In this document: positions 1,704 to 9,495 of the stretch, piece by piece | Numbering within the stretch: the first letter of the stretch is position 1 | How the letters are laid out: every line of letters begins with the position of its first letter | From: Catajapyx aquilonaris | Lineage: Eukaryota | NCBI GenBank assembly: GCA_000934665.2 | Contig: JYFJ02002443.1 | Span: 1-56,936, forward strand | Length of the DNA stretch: 56,936 nt | Reading direction: 5' to 3' | Position numbers and translations under genes: made by a program | Notes under the pieces: generated by a model | Told to the model about the DNA's origin: nothing | What the model saw: the letters and a program-made list of their open reading frames with translations, nothing else | The model's database searches: none

Positions 1704-2435
1704 GATGATGTCTTCTTCTGCTGAATATTCCTCCTTCGTTATTCCCTTGGCAATCTCTTGTCACAGCCTAAAACGCAAGTGAACACAAAATTATTATCTC
1801 TGCAGAAGAGGGTCACAGCTGGAACTCAGATTAAAAGTTTGCGTAACCTCAAGGTCGGGGGGGAATATTGCGAAATTTTAAGCAGAGGTTTTACCTTCTT
1901 TTGATAGAGAGCTAATTATTGCAGATTTTTTTTTTTCCTCTTCTTTTCACTGATAACTTATTGGCTTTTGGAACAGCTGCCAGGAAGGGAGAGCCTTGAA
2001 GTTTTGCGGCGCTGTGGGCAGATGGCGCGCACGATTAACGGCGCAAGCTCAGCAGGCGGACGCAGGCGACATCTGGGCACCAGTGGGATAAACACGCGCT
2101 TGCTGATTAATCCGCAAAAAATTTCGTTCGAATTTAGCGAATTAAATATTTGGCAAACACGTACTGATTTTTACGCGAATTGGAATTACTTTTGTGGAAC
2201 TAATTTTTTTTTAAATAAACGAAGAGGAACGGTCCGTTCCTTAATGCAGGACAAACATGGCCGCCTTGAAGGTTATCATGATTTTAATTTACTAAAAACT
2301 AATTTGCAAATACTATTTGGCCTTGGAACTAGATTAGTTTTTAATCCGGATTACCCCGCCAGGTATTTACATATGTAACGCAGTAGAGCCTGGTACTATG
2401 CGGAGCAAGGGTTTGTCAAAATTGGTCGTAGTAAG

Positions 2436-4181
2436 ATGCAAGGTGAGGCAGCGTAGGTCCAGGGCCGGAAGGTGGGTTTCATTACAGTCTCTCTCTATTG
2501 CTTTTGGGTTGCAGAGGATGGATTTGTGACGGTCAAGTCATCATCAAGAAGAAGGAGCAGAGGTCAAGGCCAGGTCAAGTCGGTCAGCGGCGGGATTGAC
2601 TGGAAGCAGTTCCCTCGGGTCGGAAGCAGCGTCGAGGAAAAGAAGGCCGTTCTCAGGTGAATACGCTCAACTGGGAGCTCATCCCAATTAAAACATGGTT
2701 CAATTAAGTAATAAAGCAATAGTTAAAATAACAAGCAACACAATAAAATATATCAAGATTAGTAAAATGAAATATTTTGTAAAATAATTGAAATAATAGG
2801 TGAACTAATGTAATAGTTGAAATAATAGTTAAAATATGTAGAATAAATAGTTAAACAACTGAAATAATATGTAGGACAATAGCTAGAATAATATGGAAAA
2901 TAATAGCTAAAATAATATACATAACAATAGCTGAAATAGTATATCAGATAATAGCTAAAATAATATACATAACAATAGCTGAAATAGTATATCAGATAAT
3001 AGCTAAAATAGCATATAAAATAATAGCTAAAACATGTAAAATAATAGTTAACATGAGTTAAGTAATAGTTAACATGAGTTAAAATAATAGCTAAAATAAT
3101 AGTTAACATGAGTTAAAATAATAGCTAAAATAATAGTTAACATGAGTTAAAATAATAGCTAAAATAATAGTTAACATGAGTTAAAATAATAGCTAAAATA
3201 ATAGTTAACATGAGTTAAAATAATAGCTAAAATAATAGTTAACATGATTTAAAATAATAGCTAAAACAAAAGTTAACATGAGTTAAAACAATAGTTAAAA
3301 TTATATGTGGACTAATATAATAGTTAAGATAATGTGTAGACTAATATATTTAAAATATTATGTAGACTAGACTCATATAATAGTTAATACATTTAGTTGA
3401 AATAAAATATTAATAAAATAAATAATGTGAATGAATTAGAATATGATTTAAAGGCTGAGTAGGTTTTAACTGACCAAAACGTATTTTCAGGCGATTGGAA
3501 TCGACTAAGGAGGACCTGTGTTCGTCCGACTTCTGCTCGGAGTTCTTCTCCGTGTTGTCTCAGGCGCTTTCTCTGAGGGCGAACCCGGATTGTTACGAAG
3601 TGGTGTGCTACGGACTGGGGTGCTTCTCCGATTGCACCGTGTCTAGATACCAGTTGGCGCTGTTGCTGCTGCTGAAGGAGAAGCTGCGTGTCAACCGGGT
3701 TTGGGTGTATGATCCGGTCTTTTCGCCGGTTGAAAAGGACGTGCTTGAGTCTGTAGGGTGCGAGGTTATAGAGGAGAACGAGGAGGGAAAACGGCGCGTC
3801 GACACTCCCACCATATTCTACCTTCCGCACTGTCCCAAGCAGCTTATTAACAACGTACTCTGGGCTAATTGGGAGCCAAGTGCGTTCAGTAAGTGCGTAC
3901 TGATTGGAAGTGCCTTTGGCCGTATTGTTGAGAATACACCACGACGCATCCTCGAGGAATCTCTGAGCTACGTCTTGAGGGCGCATCCGTACGTGACTGA
4001 GCACGGAGTTGTGAACTGCTTTAAATACACAGACATATTCAACGATACTTCAATTCACGTGGCACACAACGTGTCTGTAATCCCTACTGATTTTTGGCTG
4101 AATTGTTGCGAACCTGAGTACAGAACCGAACGTGCAGAGTTTGTAACCAAGGCTGATTTGACATGGCCTCCAACAAACTAA
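2436..4181 (+). CDS. SRRD: SRR1-like protein; exons 2436-2442, 2515-2656, 3491-4181
   Basis: SRR1-domain motifs CYGLGCF, YQLALLL, VYDPVF, NEEGKR, FYLPHCPKQLINNVLWANW and FNDTSIH. Splice phases join as MQ-E-DGFVTV...VL-R-RLESTK. The first micro-exon is less certain. Confidence 0.88.
2700..3400. repeat. AT-rich minisatellite in SRRD intron 2; 34-bp unit AAAATAATAGCTAAAATAATAGTTAACATGAGTT with degenerate flanking subrepeats
   Basis: Near-perfect tandem copies from ~3040 to 3300, degenerate AAATAATAG(C/T)T units on both sides. Confidence 0.9.
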
Positions 4182-4468
4182 CAATGCTGCGAGGGATCGT
4201 AGCAGAATGGAGACGTATCCAGCCCAAAGTGAGCGGAACGCCTTACGCAGCTTATCTTATATCGCAGTTCCGCAAGTACCAGGTGACATCAGAGCGTACT
4301 TGCAAGTCCGAGATTGAGATGCAGTACTTGGGGAACACCTATTTGACATATCTGGAGAGCAAGCGAAAATACGCAGTTATTCACAAAGAGTTTCATGCTA
4401 AAGGCGAACGTTCGGTTGCGGAAACTGCCAAGATGGTAGGGTTCAAACTTCCTCACGACCCCAAGTGA
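4163..4468 (+). CDS. FMC1: FMC1 homolog (mitochondrial complex V assembly factor, LYR-like), intronless, overlapping the SRRD stop
   Basis: YLISQFRKYQVTSERTC...TYLTYLES...HKEFHAKGERSVAETAKMVGFKLPH matches the recalled FMC1/C7orf55 pattern. Confidence 0.9.
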   Translation: MASNKLTMLRGIVAEWRRIQPKVSGTPYAAYLISQFRKYQVTSERTCKSEIEMQYLGNTYLTYLESKRKYAVIHKEFHAKGERSVAETAKMVGFKLPHDPK

Positions 4469-4733
4469 AACATTGCATTTAATGCAAATTGTAGTAACAA
4501 AAAAAGAGCGAGCATGTTTAAAAAAAAAGTGTTTGCAATGAACAGAGCATGTTGAAGAATATTACTTGCAGATTGTTAGTCTTATAAGTAGATTTTGGCT
4601 GTACCGTTTAAAAGTGTTTTGTAATGTACGCGGTTGCCTTACGAGTCTGTCATGCAGCTTTCATGTAGCTTTTCTATCGAATGTTAATTGGTTCTTGGAA
4701 AAGTTGTGGTTATTTATTTTAGAGTTGATACGA

Positions 4734-5642
4734 ATGTGCCCGCCCTTCACATCTACGATTATGTTGTGGTACATCATTGTTGAAGCACTGTTTTGCAGTG
4801 TCACGGCAACGGTTTGTCCAAAAGGAGAGTTCAAAATTGGCTCCATGACATCTTGTCAGCCGTGGTTGGGTTGCGCCGACTTGCAACACCTGCAGATTGG
4901 TGAATTGATTGGAAACGGCGCTGTTAAAAGTGTGTTTGTTGCGAAATTAGGTGACAATGCCATGGCTTACATGCAGCTAAATAATGATCGTTACTACGAC
5001 GACTTTGCACATGGAATCAGCACATTAATTGAGCTCAACCCGAGCCAGTATGTGGTTCAATTAATTGGTTTTTGTCGTGCCAAAAGCGTGGTTTTGACAG
5101 AGCTGCACAATCACAGTGATGCAACAAACATACTGGCATTGTTGAAAGAACAAGGCCGAGATACGGCGACAGAACGTCTCAAGTTGTGTCTGAGTTACGC
5201 CAAAATTTTACGCTACATCCATTCAAAACGGTATGTAATGTGTGACTCAAATGACCTCGAAAAGCTTTTGAGCCAGTTGTTGATTACGCCGGGGTTTCAG
5301 CTAGTTCTATGCGACGTCGATTCAATGCCAGTTGTCAATAGCGATGGAATCATATGCGGCCACCGGGAACTGTTTGGCGAGTTTGTTGCCCCCGAGCAGT
5401 TATGGCCGTTCAATCCCGAACCCTACGTAGAATCTAAGATGCCAGGTTATGACGAGAAGACTGATATATGGAAAGCAGCGTCTGTCTGTGACTATTTCCT
5501 GGAAGACTTCAGAACCGTGAGGTACCATGTATTCGAAACGCATCGCCGATGCAAATGCTTGAATCCTGCTGAAAGACCCTCCGCAAATGAGCTGGTAATT
5601 CTGTACGAAACGGTGTGGCGGGAGTACGAAAGAGACTTGTAA
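4734..5642 (+). CDS. POMK: Protein O-mannose kinase (SGK196), single coding exon
   Basis: Hydrophobic N-terminal anchor, CPKGEFKIGSMTSCQPWLGC, IGNGAVKSV, VMCDSNDLEKLLSQLL, CGHRELFGEFVAPEQLWP and YDEKTDIWK. First true ATG is 4734 (alternative 4761). AATAAA at ~5748 and ~5772. Confidence 0.9.
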   Translation: MCPPFTSTIMLWYIIVEALFCSVTATVCPKGEFKIGSMTSCQPWLGCADLQHLQIGELIGNGAVKSVFVAKLGDNAMAYMQLNNDRYYDDFAHGISTLIELNPSQYVVQLIGFCRAKSVVLTELHNHSDATNILALLKEQGRDTATERLKLCLSYAKILRYIHSKRYVMCDSNDLEKLLSQLLITPGFQLVLCDVDSMPVVNSDGIICGHRELFGEFVAPEQLWPFNPEPYVESKMPGYDEKTDIWKAASVCDYFLEDFRTVRYHVFETHRRCKCLNPAERPSANELVILYETVWREYERDL

Positions 5643-5822
5643 GCAACTTGTAAGCATATTATCATGACATGCATGGAACGATAAGCTCCTGAAAAGTATC
5701 CTTGTAACGAGCCGGAAGAATGTACTGCATGTTGTGAGTCATACTAAAATAAAATATATTTCTCAAATATCAATAAAATATTAATCATTTATGTGGTCAT
5801 GGTCCGTAAAAAGGCTAGTTCA

Positions 5823-7643
5823 TCACTGATTGAACTCTTGAGCGATATGTTTGGCAATCGTGTTCAGTTGGATGTTCGACGTCCCCTCGTAAATGGCACC
5901 GATCTTGCAGTCTCGATAATACTTCTCAATAGGGAAGTCCTTCGTGTAACCAACTCCTCCCATCCACTCCATGCACTTGCTCGTAGTCAGGGCGGCTACT
6001 TCTGCAAAATAATGACATTTTAGTACAGAAAGTACGCTTCAAGTCATTGCACTTACCTGATGCGTAGTACTTGCACATCGCAGCCTGCTTGACAAATGGC
6101 TTCCCGTCCTGACAGAGCCTGGCCGCATTGTAGACGAGGAGCCTTGCGCACTCGATCTGTGTTGCCACTTGCGATACTTGGTGCTGCATCGCTTGGAACT
6201 CGTATATTTTGCGGCCAAACTGTTGTCGTTCGAATAGGTACGGTACTGTCGCATCGAAGCATCCTTGCGCCAGACCCATCATTTGTGCTCCAATTCCAAT
6301 CCTGCCTTCGTTTAGCATTGTAATTGCGTACTTGTAACCCTGCCCGACTTTTCCAAGCACGTTCTCGACTGGGATTTTAACGGAATCGAAATGGACAGCA
6401 CATGTCGAGGATGAGCGTATTCCAAGCTTTGACTCCTTTTTGCCGATAGTTAATCCAGGCGTGTTACCATCAACGATGAAAGTGGTGATTCCGCGATAAC
6501 CAGCAGATATGTCAGCGTTTGCCATCACCAGGAACACGCCAGCAATGTCAGCGCTTGATATCCACATTTTGGATCCATTAATTACGTAATGGTCACCTTC
6601 GCGCTTTGCAGTCGTCTTCAGGGAGAAAGCATCTGAACCGGATCCAGCTTCAGACAAGCAAAACGATCCGACTGTTGACGTGGCCAGTTTCGGAAGGTAC
6701 GTCTCCTTCTGCTTCTCAGTTCCAAGTTTACGTATAAGCGTGTTGATAAGCGTATTTTGTACATCGCACATGACGGACACGCCTGCTTCAGCTCGTGCCA
6801 GTTCCTCAATGACAAGGATTGTAGAGAAGAAAGTCGATCCAGTCCCGCCATACTCCTGCCCAATCTCAATTCCCATCAGCCCATTTTCAAACAACGCATC
6901 CACAACAGACTGATCCATTTTTCCTTCCTCATCCATCTTGGAAGCCAAAGGCGTAATCTTTTCCTTCGCCAATCGACGGACTGACTCACGCATCATCTGC
7001 TCATCATCCAGCAGGTAGGTCAACGGAGGCAAATGCGCTTCTCTGGCCCCACCGAGCCATCTGCGCAATTGTTTTGCTGGTCCCTGAAAATTGAAGACTA
7101 CAAATTAAATTTAATGTAAGACTAATTAGGCAAATATACCTATCCTAGCTATGTGTACGCCCAAGTAGCACGAATCGCCCTGGAACATCCCATGGATATC
7201 CAGATATCCACTGAATCGCCCTTGAACATCCCATGGATATCCAGATATCCACTGAATCGCCCTTGAACATCCCATAGATATCCAAATATCCACTGAATCG
7301 CCTTTGAACATCCCATAGATATCCAAATATCCACTGAATCGCCTTTGAACATCCCATAGATATCCAAAGATCCGCTGAATCGCCCTTGAACATCCCATGG
7401 ATATCCAAATATCTAGTGGCGATTCAGTGGATATCTGGATATCCATGGGATGTTCCAGGGTGATTCGTGCTACTTGGGGCAGTACTGTACAGTACATACA
7501 ATGCACATGCTGCAAATTAAACACATGTTATTCCATGCCCTGATTATATAATTTCTTGATTATAACCGCAGCATGGAAGCTAATCTTAATTAAAATTAAA
7601 AATTATTAACCTTAGATAAAGTTCGCCACATGTGCGCCGCCAT
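5823..7643 (-). CDS. ACADSB: Short/branched-chain acyl-CoA dehydrogenase; exons 7643-7611, 7083-6057, 6001-5823
   Basis: ACAD motifs [44 protein letters not shown] and [39 protein letters not shown] introns are phase-consistent. Confidence 0.93.
7160..7478. mobile_element. Non-autonomous foldback/MITE with long TIRs (CCCAAGTAGCACGAATC...) and ~6 internal copies of a 41-42-bp tandem repeat, in ACADSB intron 1
   Basis: 7160-7220 is nearly the reverse complement of ~7418-7478. The unit CCACTGAATCGCCCTTGAACATCCCATGGATATCCAGATAT repeats in tandem. TSD ambiguous (possibly GC). Confidence 0.8.
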
Positions 7644-7855: not shown

Positions 7856-7939
7856 GTGAGTTCTCCGAATTCTCGTGTTCTTTTATCTTTATCCACGTTT
7901 ATTGTTCCGAAATAGAACCCATCCTTCGTCCAAATCCTC

Positions 7940-8053
7940 GCTATGGGCAGCCCATGAATTGTGGCTGAAAAATCCAGCCAGATAATAGCCGTAACTAGTG
8001 TCTATTTGCGTGTGGACCACCTCTATATTTGTGGGGTACAGGGTGTGACATAA
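7940..8053 (+). ncRNA. Candidate box H/ACA snoRNA in the RPL26 5'UTR intron
   Basis: Hairpin (CAGCC/GGCTG), H box AGATAA at 7980-7985, second hairpin (CCAC/GTGG), ACA at 8048-8050. Ribosomal-protein host gene. Confidence 0.35.
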
Positions 8054-8127
8054 ATGTTCTAATAATTATTATGAAGTGTGTTCTAATTTGGCTGTTGTGC
8101 TGCCGTAGGGAGTGAGACCAGTTCAAG

Positions 8128-9495
8128 ATGAAGCTGAACAAGCTTGTGACCAAGTCGCGGAGGAAGAACCGCAAGCGTCACTTCACGGCTCCGTCTCACA
8201 TCAGGCGCAAGCTCATGTCCTCTCCGCTCAGCAAGGAGCTTAGGCAGAAGTACAGCGTAAGGAGCATGCCCATCAGGAAGGACGATGAGGTCCAGGTGAG
8301 TTGGTCGACCGCAACGTGTGAAATTTGCACATTTTAAAATTAGATATGATGATATACATGAATCCATTCACATAATGCGTGGCTGTGTTTCTCGCCTCTT
8401 CCAAACTAAAGGAATGCTAGTTTGGTTGAGGTTTTCTCTTCCGAACACGGCTTCCTTGGTTTAACAGCGGAGAGGCTTGGAACTGGCTAATGCTTGAAGA
8501 TACATGGCTCTGATCTAAACATAACCTTTGAATAATGCAGGTTTTTTGTTGAAAAAGTTTTAATCTGACACTTTTGTTTCCACTTAAGGTGGTGAGAGGT
8601 CATTACAAGGGTCAGCAGGTGGGCAAGGTTGTCCAGGTGTACAGGAAAAAGTTTGTCATCTACATTGAGCGGATTCAGAGGGAGAAGGCGAATGGAGCTT
8701 CCGTGTATGTTGGGATCCATCCATCCAAGGTTAGTCATGACCTGACGATTTGTATTGTACTATTGAGCCACCCTATGGTTCCTTAAAAAGTATGCGGTTT
8801 TTCTAACGTCCCAAATTTATACCACCCAGGGTTGCTACCATGAAGTATTTTCAGATCTCACTTGCCATGTCATGTATTACGAAGTGTTTAAAAATGCGCA
8901 GAGAGTGGGCCAGATGTAATACTGCAAAAAAAAGGAGATCCTTGTCCTGCAGGTCACCAAAATAAGTTGACCATGTTGATGACAATAATTTATTGTGCAT
9001 CTGGAGAAGCCAGTATTTAAGAGCACATTTCATCGGCATAAAGGAGTCCAATACATTTTGACGGTTTTCAGTTCAGAAAACCACATCTAACTCTATAGTT
9101 AACGTTGATTCATGTTCATACAACCTGACCTGAGGAGCTCGGATCTATCGCCTGGTGAAGTCCATTTAGGCCTAAATATTCATAATTATCCAGCAAGCCA
9201 GGATTTTTTTACATTCACTACTAATTGGATTATCTTGAAACTTATTTTTTTGGAATGTGCCCACGATTTTGGAAATTATTTTGCCGATAATTTTGTGACC
9301 TGTAGTTACAATCTTATGAATTCAACTGAAAGTGACCTTTTTTTCCCCCCTGGTTAACAGGTGGTGATAGTGAAGCTGAAAATGGACAAGGACCGCAAGG
9401 ACATCATAGAGCGGAAGGCAAAGGGTCGCCTGGCAGCCATTGGCAAGGACAAGGGCAAATACACCGAAGAGTCCACGGCCATGGAGACCTCATGA
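8128..9495 (+). CDS. RPL26: 60S ribosomal protein L26 (uL24); exons 8128-8295, 8589-8729, 9361-9495
   Basis: [33 protein letters not shown]...[21 protein letters not shown]...[25 protein letters not shown] near 9524. Confidence 0.97.
8340..8518 (+). ncRNA. Candidate long box C/D snoRNA (SNORD17-like) in an RPL26 intron
   Basis: Terminal stem TTAGA/TCTAA, C box ATGATGA 8346-8352, D box CTGA 8510-8513 located 75 nt from the 3' splice site. Guide AATCCATTCA (8361-8370) is complementary to recalled 28S UGAAUGGAUU. Long internal hairpin. Confidence 0.65.

Follow-up and report, generated by a model that had tools for sequence, protein, structure and literature searches.

SRRD and FMC1 of Catajapyx aquilonaris probably constitute an old dicistronic mRNA, whose second cistron is read by long-range leaky scanning rather than by termination-reinitiation. 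That these two genes share a transcript is well supported: SRRD and FMC1 abut across most of the loci examined and the coding DNA of SRRD is nearly free of AUG, and a common capped mRNA is therefore likely. The AUG desert in SRRD, which was observed in all 15 lineages and is confined to this gene, is new in this analysis, and no published report of SRRD-FMC1 as a dicistronic or bicistronic pair was found in a search that missed most subscription journals.

The window analysed is the whole stretch of 56,936 nucleotides (contig JYFJ02002443.1), in which SRRD, FMC1, and POMK follow one another on the forward strand and ACADSB converges from the reverse strand (Table 1). The first-pass annotation had described three unrelated genes on one strand, and the names that it gave them were upheld by the SRR1 domain in SRRD (E 1e-49, Pfam) and by named homologues of FMC1 (approximately 50–55% identity) and POMK (approximately 40–50% identity); a Pfam search alone made no call for the FMC1 of the window. 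Re-reading of the sequence bore out the FMC1 ATG at 4163, the SRRD stop codon (TAA) at 4179–4181, the resulting 19-nt overlap, the in-frame TGA at 4154–4156 upstream of FMC1 and a second in-frame ATG at 4184 just past the SRRD stop (TAA-CA-ATG). In an alignment of 33 FMC1 proteins this second ATG shows no conservation, and due to this it was rejected as the main FMC1 start, which is likelier to be at 4163. The earlier reading of SRRD as one open frame from 2436 is replaced by three exons encoding 279 aa, both introns being skipped with GT..AG ends in X1, a single contig-level run (kind unrecorded, unstranded) whose contigs skip GT..AG introns. FMC1 and POMK, which had been considered to be uninterrupted, are both covered in X1 with no joint within either, and the reported lack of AATAAA before about 5748 was confirmed: neither AATAAA nor ATTAAA is present between 3491 and 5748, where the variant AATGAA occurs at 4537. 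The region 3491–5800 is single copy in the genome, positions 2000–6200 gave no Rfam matches, and the genome collection searched contained no relatives of this genome.

Table 1. Features of the SRRD-FMC1-POMK region and their positions in the window.
Feature	Coordinates	Strand	Remarks
Leader	2263..2435	+	Covered by the X1 contig bearing SRRD exons 1–3; AUGs at 2278, 2373, 2398
SRRD exon 1	2436..2442	+	7 nt coding; start codon, A at -3; joint 2440>2513 (GT..AG) in X1
SRRD exon 2	2515..2656	+	Joints in X1
Out-of-frame ORF in exon 2	2518..2529	+	3 codons; G at +4 and, in the spliced RNA, A at -3
SRRD intron 2	2657..3490	+	AT-rich; 12- and 34-nt tandem repeats inside
SRRD exon 3	3491..4181	+	SRR1 domain; no internal Met; sole AUG (3709) ahead of the FMC1 start
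Strongest cryptic acceptor in SRRD exon 3	3539..3563	+	Start of X1 contig 2 at 3563 (may reflect a coverage gap)
FMC1	4163..4468	+	101 aa; homologue of LYR-type F1-ATPase assembly factor; AUG 19 nt inside SRRD
FMC1-POMK spacer	4469..4733	+	265 nt; 8 AUGs; variant AATGAA at 4537
Acceptor-like site in spacer	ends 4722	+	Frame matches that of SRRD exon 1; score at the 90th percentile
POMK	4734..5642	+	302 aa; one exon; homologue of protein O-mannose kinase
First AATAAA hexamers after SRRD intron 2	5748 and 5772 (5748..5777)	+	
ACADSB-like acyl-CoA dehydrogenase, last coding exon	5823..6001	-	Convergent; 180 nt separate its stop from that of POMK

The synteny check that had been suggested placed SRRD, which like FMC1 encodes a conserved protein, immediately upstream of FMC1 in 24 of the 30 true FMC1 loci fetched, and this arrangement is not due to chance; four loci (L022 and L027–L029) have no SRRD upstream of FMC1. 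Of 27 longer FMC1 proteins in the database, 15 are fused models carrying the SRR1 Pfam domain, and the frequency of such fusions in insect gene models would be explained by the shared-mRNA arrangement; a Glossina model joins FMC1 to THOC7, not to SRRD. As the convergent ACADSB is also retained beside the block in seven loci, synteny alone does not show co-transcription. The distance from the SRRD stop to the FMC1 start ranges from -149 to +130 nt in the 15 lineages, and AATAAA or ATTAAA between the SRRD and FMC1 stops is absent in 10 of them and present in five.

In the final ≤600 nt of SRRD, 45 AUGs were seen over the 15 lineages versus 130 expected (observed/expected, O/E, 0.35), with counts under expectation in every lineage, and AUG was the most depleted of the 64 triplets in seven of them. 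The SRRDs of these lineages share only 26–81% identity; the lineages are related to one another and were merged by eye, and p-values therefore overstate their independence. The SRRD of the window has one AUG versus 9.0 expected, the lowest value among 13 long open frames, and this AUG (3709) has a pyrimidine at -3 and opens 15 codons. No depletion was found in the controls FMC1 (O/E 1.02), POMK (0.95), and ACADSB (1.2). When out-of-frame AUGs alone were considered, O/E was 0.47 against codon shuffles, with all 15 lineages below expectation, and 0.64 against synonymous resampling, with 12 below (controls 0.98–1.28); L005, L010, and L019 are not depleted under the latter, conservative null. In 100-nt bins the ratios were 0.13–0.66 in each bin from -600 to the FMC1 AUG, where depletion stops, and 0.88–1.41 beyond it. 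Where out-of-frame AUGs remain, a purine occupies -3 in 9 of 33 cases, compared with 59 of 111 control AUGs (p 0.01), and only 2 of 42 residual ORFs in SRRD overlap the FMC1 start.

At the protein level, the SRR1 core is devoid of Met in 51 of 88 proteins from the insect-containing clade versus 3 of 82 outside it, and the median Met content of the SRRD proteins is 0 versus 3, the outside proteins having been compared for Met content only. The clade/outside ratio is 0.27 for Met and 0.75 for the next residue. In the tree, two linked, Met-poor SRRDs (L004 and L020) do not group with the Met-poor clade, and Met has been regained in ant/wasp-like SRRD. The loss of Met is probably caused by selection against AUG. 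If it were instead a protein-level quirk of SRRD, the three genes being ordinary, tightly packed monocistronic genes, this would agree with the compactness of the genome and with conserved neighbours that include a convergent gene; however, the depletion extends to out-of-frame AUGs and stops at the FMC1 AUG, and the Met content is ordinary in SRRDs from outside the clade, which makes this explanation barely credible.

The desert in exon 3 can also be accounted for if FMC1 has a promoter of its own, near the start of this exon or in intron 2, in which case the SRRD coding DNA would provide a monocistronic FMC1 mRNA with a long 5' UTR free of AUG. Consistent with this, the X1 contigs break at 3563–3588, and the 3' contig starting at 3563 is deeper (24, although this includes ACADSB) than the SRRD 5' contig (5). 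We consider this explanation unlikely, as the 5' portion of the SRRD coding sequence is likewise depleted (5 AUGs versus 19.4 expected in 12 loci), a weak SRRD start context is not predicted by it, and a start cannot be placed from contig depth.

An A at -3 is present at the FMC1 AUG in 10 of 12 loci versus 2 of 12 for the SRRD AUG (p 0.02); the window departs from this pattern in having an A at -3 for SRRD and G at both -3 and +4 for FMC1. In the leaky scanning model that we favour, one capped mRNA would hold both SRRD and FMC1, and some ribosomes would bypass the SRRD start, or alternatively would translate a short ORF overlapping it out of frame and then reinitiate; the bypassing ribosomes would then cover about 820 nt by scanning before they meet the FMC1 AUG. 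As the SRRD AUG in the window has an A at -3, a role is probable here for the short ORFs at 2398 and 2518. The first of these has 19 codons and overlaps the SRRD start in spliced RNA, while the second is a candidate reinitiation uORF. Short out-of-frame ORFs were also present close to the SRRD start in all 10 other loci scanned, which is only suggestive of a role in the mechanism.

The first-pass annotation had proposed one transcript translated by termination-reinitiation, with ribosomes that end SRRD restarting at the adjacent FMC1 AUG. The sharing of a transcript by SRRD and FMC1 is well supported by their conserved geometry and the AUG desert, but the mechanism is the weaker one, as it fails to predict either the loss of AUGs over 600 nt upstream or the weak SRRD start, and we regard it as very unlikely. 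Stop-start overlaps of the TAATG and ATGA types do occur in 4 of 15 lineages, with a distance of +2 nt in two more, and of 118 FMC1 N-termini only one, that of the closest FMC1 relative (P0001), would fit the same 19-nt overlap with the closest SRRD relative (P0271). However, spacings of -149, -53, and +130 nt are also found, and a TURBS-type signal was rejected, the UGGGA motif occurring 30–100 nt upstream of the SRRD stop in 3 of 15 lineages and being absent in the window.

X1 covers 3563–6001 without a joint, and thus spans FMC1, POMK, and the antisense ACADSB. As the mRNA of an antisense gene has been merged here, separate transcripts evidently fuse in the assembly, and X1 is compatible with one SRRD-FMC1 mRNA but does not prove it. 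An assembled contig from another species (L008) lacks both SRRD introns, contains SRRD and FMC1, and ends with AATAAA followed by a run of A.

Another proposal of the first-pass annotation was one promoter with alternative 3' splice sites, by which SRRD exon 1 or 2 would be joined to an acceptor in or after SRRD to yield mRNAs for FMC1 (and POMK). Outside the window this was borne out by the ant-like contig L025, where the SRRD 5' exon is spliced in a different frame to the terminal part of SRRD, so that a short ORF precedes FMC1, and by RefSeq isoforms from Athalia, Orussus, Colletes, and Plodia that link the SRRD N-terminus to FMC1. Additionally, more AUGs are retained in lineages whose acceptor ahead of FMC1 is better (Spearman 0.68 for 15 lineages, not phylogeny-corrected), and the window itself has an acceptor-like site 11 nt before POMK and, at 3563, a strong cryptic acceptor. 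The proposal found no support for FMC1 in the window, where the AGs within 50 nt upstream of its AUG score no higher than the 62nd percentile (using a matrix built from 15 introns of one species) and X1 has no joint into FMC1, although contigs drop rare forms. Furthermore, if SRRD were skipped, the AUG desert would be unnecessary, and we consider alternative splicing unlikely as the explanation. Moths and ant/wasp-like lineages have a spliced form that lacks some or most of the SRRD core, and the constraint on AUG is relaxed in the ant/wasp-like lineages.

Dicistronic and polycistronic genes in Drosophila similarly place unrelated ORFs on one mRNA, as is likely for SRRD-FMC1; stop-start distances in exclusively polycistronic loci are -34 to 319 nt, and monocistronic forms that arise through splicing or from different promoters are frequent (Crosby et al., 2015; PMC4528330). 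The SRRD-FMC1 pair was not found in the supplements of this work under the gene IDs tried. Most of the Drosophila pairs fail the requirements for scanning (PMC4528330), whereas SRRD as the first ORF carries a scanning signature. The sloth1-sloth2 bicistronic mRNA (PMC9681215) resembles the present case in old linkage, a mitochondrial product, leaky scanning (proposed here), and a weak ORF1 and strong ORF2 context (here across loci, not in the window), but its ORF1 has 79 codons and its products are paralogues, whereas SRRD has 279 codons and is unrelated to FMC1. Green algal bicistronic loci (PMC11291117) likewise have a weak ORF1 Kozak context (again across loci in our case) and an ORF2 that is not AUG-depleted, and the depletion before ORF2 (median O/E 0.49 and 0.43) compares with 0.35 for SRRD-FMC1; their ORF1 is relatively small and their mechanism was tested, whereas ours is a proposed one. 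In rice tungro bacilliform virus ORFs I–III, about 895 nt of AUG-free coding RNA is scanned (reviewed in PMC3542737), against a proposed 821 nt in SRRD-FMC1, but the former is a viral RNA and the latter a cellular housekeeping pair. The silkworm uENF1-uENF2-PP tricistronic mRNA (PMC2978622) is also an insect polycistronic mRNA with context-dependent scanning (proposed here), but it encodes related secreted peptides and is limited to moths, and the third ORF in our case, POMK, lacks a scanning signature.

Cellular leaky-scanning pairs known so far mostly have a short first ORF, whereas SRRD is a conserved protein of 279 residues, whose amino acid content appears to be shaped by translation of its neighbour FMC1. 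RNAi or knockout of either gene may affect both. Met-poor ORFs with loss of out-of-frame AUGs provide a cheap screen for hidden dicistronic mRNAs. The scanning and splicing lineages offer a natural comparison. A broader scenario, which we put forward tentatively and with some doubt, is that insects and related groups have an ancient eukaryotic operon-like mRNA. SRRD would have been purged of Met to allow scanning to FMC1, some lineages would have switched to splicing and regained Met, and POMK would be the third cistron in several lineages; in that case, Met-free ORFs would mark hidden polycistronic mRNAs genome-wide.

Scanning through FMC1 probably does not bring ribosomes to POMK. This route was rejected, as 13 AUGs were seen between the FMC1 and POMK starts in the window versus 10.0 expected, and in the other five lineages their number was close to or over expectation. 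POMK could be translated following a splice to the acceptor ending at 4722, from its own promoter, or by low-level reinitiation after FMC1.

SRRD, FMC1, and POMK are closely packed on the plus strand of the window and are followed by a convergent acyl-CoA dehydrogenase gene, which we take to be ACADSB; the genome of this species contains one copy of the SRRD-FMC1-POMK region. The naming is based upon an SRR1 domain for SRRD (E 1.2e-49), 178 homologs for FMC1, of which those carrying names are insect FMC1, and 314 homologs for POMK. The junction described in the first-pass annotation was confirmed in the sequence, viz. an FMC1 ATG at 4163 overlapping SRRD (TAA at 4179-4181) by 19 nt, a second in-frame FMC1 ATG at 4184, an in-frame TGA before FMC1 at 4154-4156, and no AATAAA or ATTAAA between 3491 and 5748. 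Judging by the general roles of SRRD and POMK, the three products have no apparent functional link. In PMC4381221, FMC1 figures among the LYR-type OXPHOS assembly factors.

Coordinates of SRRD and of the convergent gene in the window (X1, contig-level sequencing run of the same species)
Feature	Position	Strand	Remarks
SRRD	coding exons 2436-2442, 2515-2656, 3491-4181	+	279 aa; both introns skipped in X1
Acyl-CoA dehydrogenase (ACADSB-like)	stop 5823-5825	minus	converges on the block; family by domain match

A metagenome scan for FMC1 yielded 32 loci, of which L032 and L033 (E 7e-5 and 9e-4) were rejected, consisting of long unrelated ORFs. In 24 of the other 30, SRRD is directly upstream of FMC1; the upstream sequence is too short to judge in L006 and L026, and SRRD is absent there in L022 and the near-identical L027-L029. 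POMK follows in 11/30, 14-79 nt past the FMC1 stop, and a convergent ACADSB in 7/30. Since the convergent gene is conserved as well, synteny by itself proves little. Among 27 longer FMC1-matching database proteins, 15 contain an SRR1 domain (beetles, cockroach, lice, flies, mosquitoes, wasps, bee); in one from Frankliniella, FMC1 is fused to POMK, and in one from Glossina, to THOC7. In Diploptera, an SRR1+FMC1 model and POMK have neighbouring locus tags and accessions. Many public insect models (P0241-P0259, P0267) show SRRD-FMC1, FMC1-POMK or FMC1-THOC7 fusions. Most of these are probably annotation artefacts of tight packing. The arrangement itself is real and widely conserved. The ACADSB-like gene lies tail-to-tail with the block (window 5643-6001) in L011, L014, L015, L016, L019, L021, and L025, and is kept even in ant-like loci lacking POMK. 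In L022 (1-760) and L027-L029, natural controls for lost linkage, the FMC1 AUG follows an acceptor-like site by a few bases.

ATG triplets were counted in one locus per lineage, picked by eye among near-identical junctions (L010 represents L011, L013, L014, L016, L017, and L026; L021 represents L023 and L024; L008 represents L007); L003 and L025 contain too little SRRD and were left out. The 13 aligned of these 15 lineages (window included) are 26-81% identical (median 37%); as the lineages are related, the evidence is at best as strong as the p-values suggest. Within at most the last 600 nt of SRRD (introns included in the L031 segment), 45 ATGs occur versus 130.4 expected from dinucleotide content, with all 15 lineages below expectation; ATG ranks first in depletion among the 64 triplets in seven lineages and within the top five in 12. 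The ratio is 0.95 for POMK (6 loci), 1.2 for ACADSB (3) and 1.02 for FMC1 (18). The window's SRRD has 1 ATG versus 9.0 expected, the lowest ratio among its 13 open frames of at least 200 codons, and only two AUGs (2518, 3709) occur in the 821 nt from the SRRD start to the FMC1 start. All 100-nt bins from -600 to the FMC1 AUG are at 0.13-0.66 and the three past it at 0.88-1.41 (14 loci); the SRRD 5' coding part is depleted likewise (5 ATG versus 19.4, 12 loci). Ordinary packing of genes is hardly a credible account of this block.

Out-of-frame ATGs in SRRD amount to 0.47 of codon shuffles (15/15 lineages below) and 0.64 of synonymous resampling (12/15 below, the exceptions being L005, L010, and L019), versus 0.98-1.28 in controls; this loss cannot be explained by protein selection on Met. 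A purine is present at -3 of 9/33 leftover out-of-frame AUGs versus 59/111 in controls, and A at -3 in 10/12 FMC1 starts versus 2/12 SRRD starts, the window being among the exceptions. The proteins are affected as well. In a midpoint-rooted FastTree of 170 SRR1 cores (150 representatives, 13 locus and 7 fused-model sequences; 152 columns), a clade of 88 tips (support 0.88) has a median of 0 Met (51 with none) versus 3 outside (none in 3/82), and its Met frequency is 0.27 of that outside (next residue 0.75). Among 20 representatives checked, names were obtained for seven: Eulimnadia (0 Met), Cimex (4), Rhynocoris (3), and Odynerus (4) inside the clade, and Artemia (5), Branchiostoma (3), and Glandiceps (2) outside. 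An ant/wasp-like subclade averages 2.0 Met, and the SRRD-linked L004 (0 Met) and L020 (1 Met) sit outside the Met-poor clade.

We consider it probable that SRRD and FMC1 share an mRNA on which ribosomes would scan through SRRD to reach the FMC1 start, and the pair likely belongs among dicistronic mRNAs. Flies (PMC9681215) and algae (PMC11291117) have bicistronic mRNAs read by leaky scanning, and the pair would work like these; it is set apart by its ORF1 length and by the Met imprint that the ORF1 protein bears. The literature searched, in the parts seen, contained no report of this pair; the fly pair could stand in the PMC4528330 supplements under another ID. An internal promoter would give FMC1 a long AUG-free leader and is an unlikely alternative. 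Some contigs from other loci resemble transcripts: L008 carries SRRD and FMC1, lacks both SRRD introns of its relative L009 and ends in AATAAA followed by an A run, L020 has intronless SRRD and FMC1, and L005 and L012 have all three genes intronless and end just past the POMK stop. We infer an RNA origin for these four contigs, but the introns may have been lost rather than spliced out. Termination-reinitiation, one of the two routes of the first-pass annotation, we regard as very improbable.

Its other route, splicing, is seen in some lineages. In L025, which is ant-like in that it resembles L015 and L021, the SRRD 5' exon is joined to the terminal portion of SRRD in a different frame, so that a short ORF remains before FMC1. 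RefSeq isoforms of Athalia, Orussus, Colletes, and Plodia, of a kind generally made with RNA support, join SRRD N-termini to FMC1. Across lineages, a better acceptor before FMC1 accompanies more retained AUGs (rho 0.68, acceptors scored by a rough matrix built upon 15 introns of the window's species); by this matrix, no AG near the window's FMC1 start exceeds the 62nd percentile. As the main route in the window's species, splicing is unlikely. In L008 (66-110), the donor used for the first SRRD intron lies 15 nt farther downstream; this breaks the frame and places a stop right after the start, whereby the principal ORF of this polyadenylated contig would be FMC1.

X1 contigs skip GT..AG introns, as expected if X1 is RNA. 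A spliced contig (depth 5) spans 2263-3588; another (depth 23.6) spans 3563-6001 without a joint and then runs on into ACADSB exons. Being unstranded and merging an antisense gene, the latter is compatible with one mRNA but no demonstration of it. Among X1 contigs, from which rare forms get dropped, none was listed with a joint leading into the start of FMC1 or of POMK. The start of the deeper contig at 3563, which may reflect a coverage gap, coincides with the strongest cryptic acceptor of SRRD exon 3, whose score of 4.6 matches that of the exon's real acceptor. Its use (window 3539-3588) would cut SRRD to a short ORF before FMC1, as in L025.

For POMK, scanning is unlikely because neither FMC1 nor the spacer is poor in AUGs (13 AUGs versus 10.0 expected in the window, 8 in the spacer). 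An acceptor-like site 11 nt before the POMK AUG is in frame with SRRD exon 1 and scores at the 90th percentile, just under all 15 real acceptors (leave-one-out scoring). The FMC1-POMK spacers of five other lineages (14-79 nt, 0-1 AUG) would fit either reinitiation or a spliced leader.

Minisatellites (within window 2811-3369 and 7172-7413) occur in SRRD intron 2 (12- and 34-nt units) and an ACADSB intron (41-nt unit, recurring in other X1 contigs). A spliced gene with high coverage at 7865-9400, presumably ribosomal protein L26-like from its ORF, is divergent from ACADSB.
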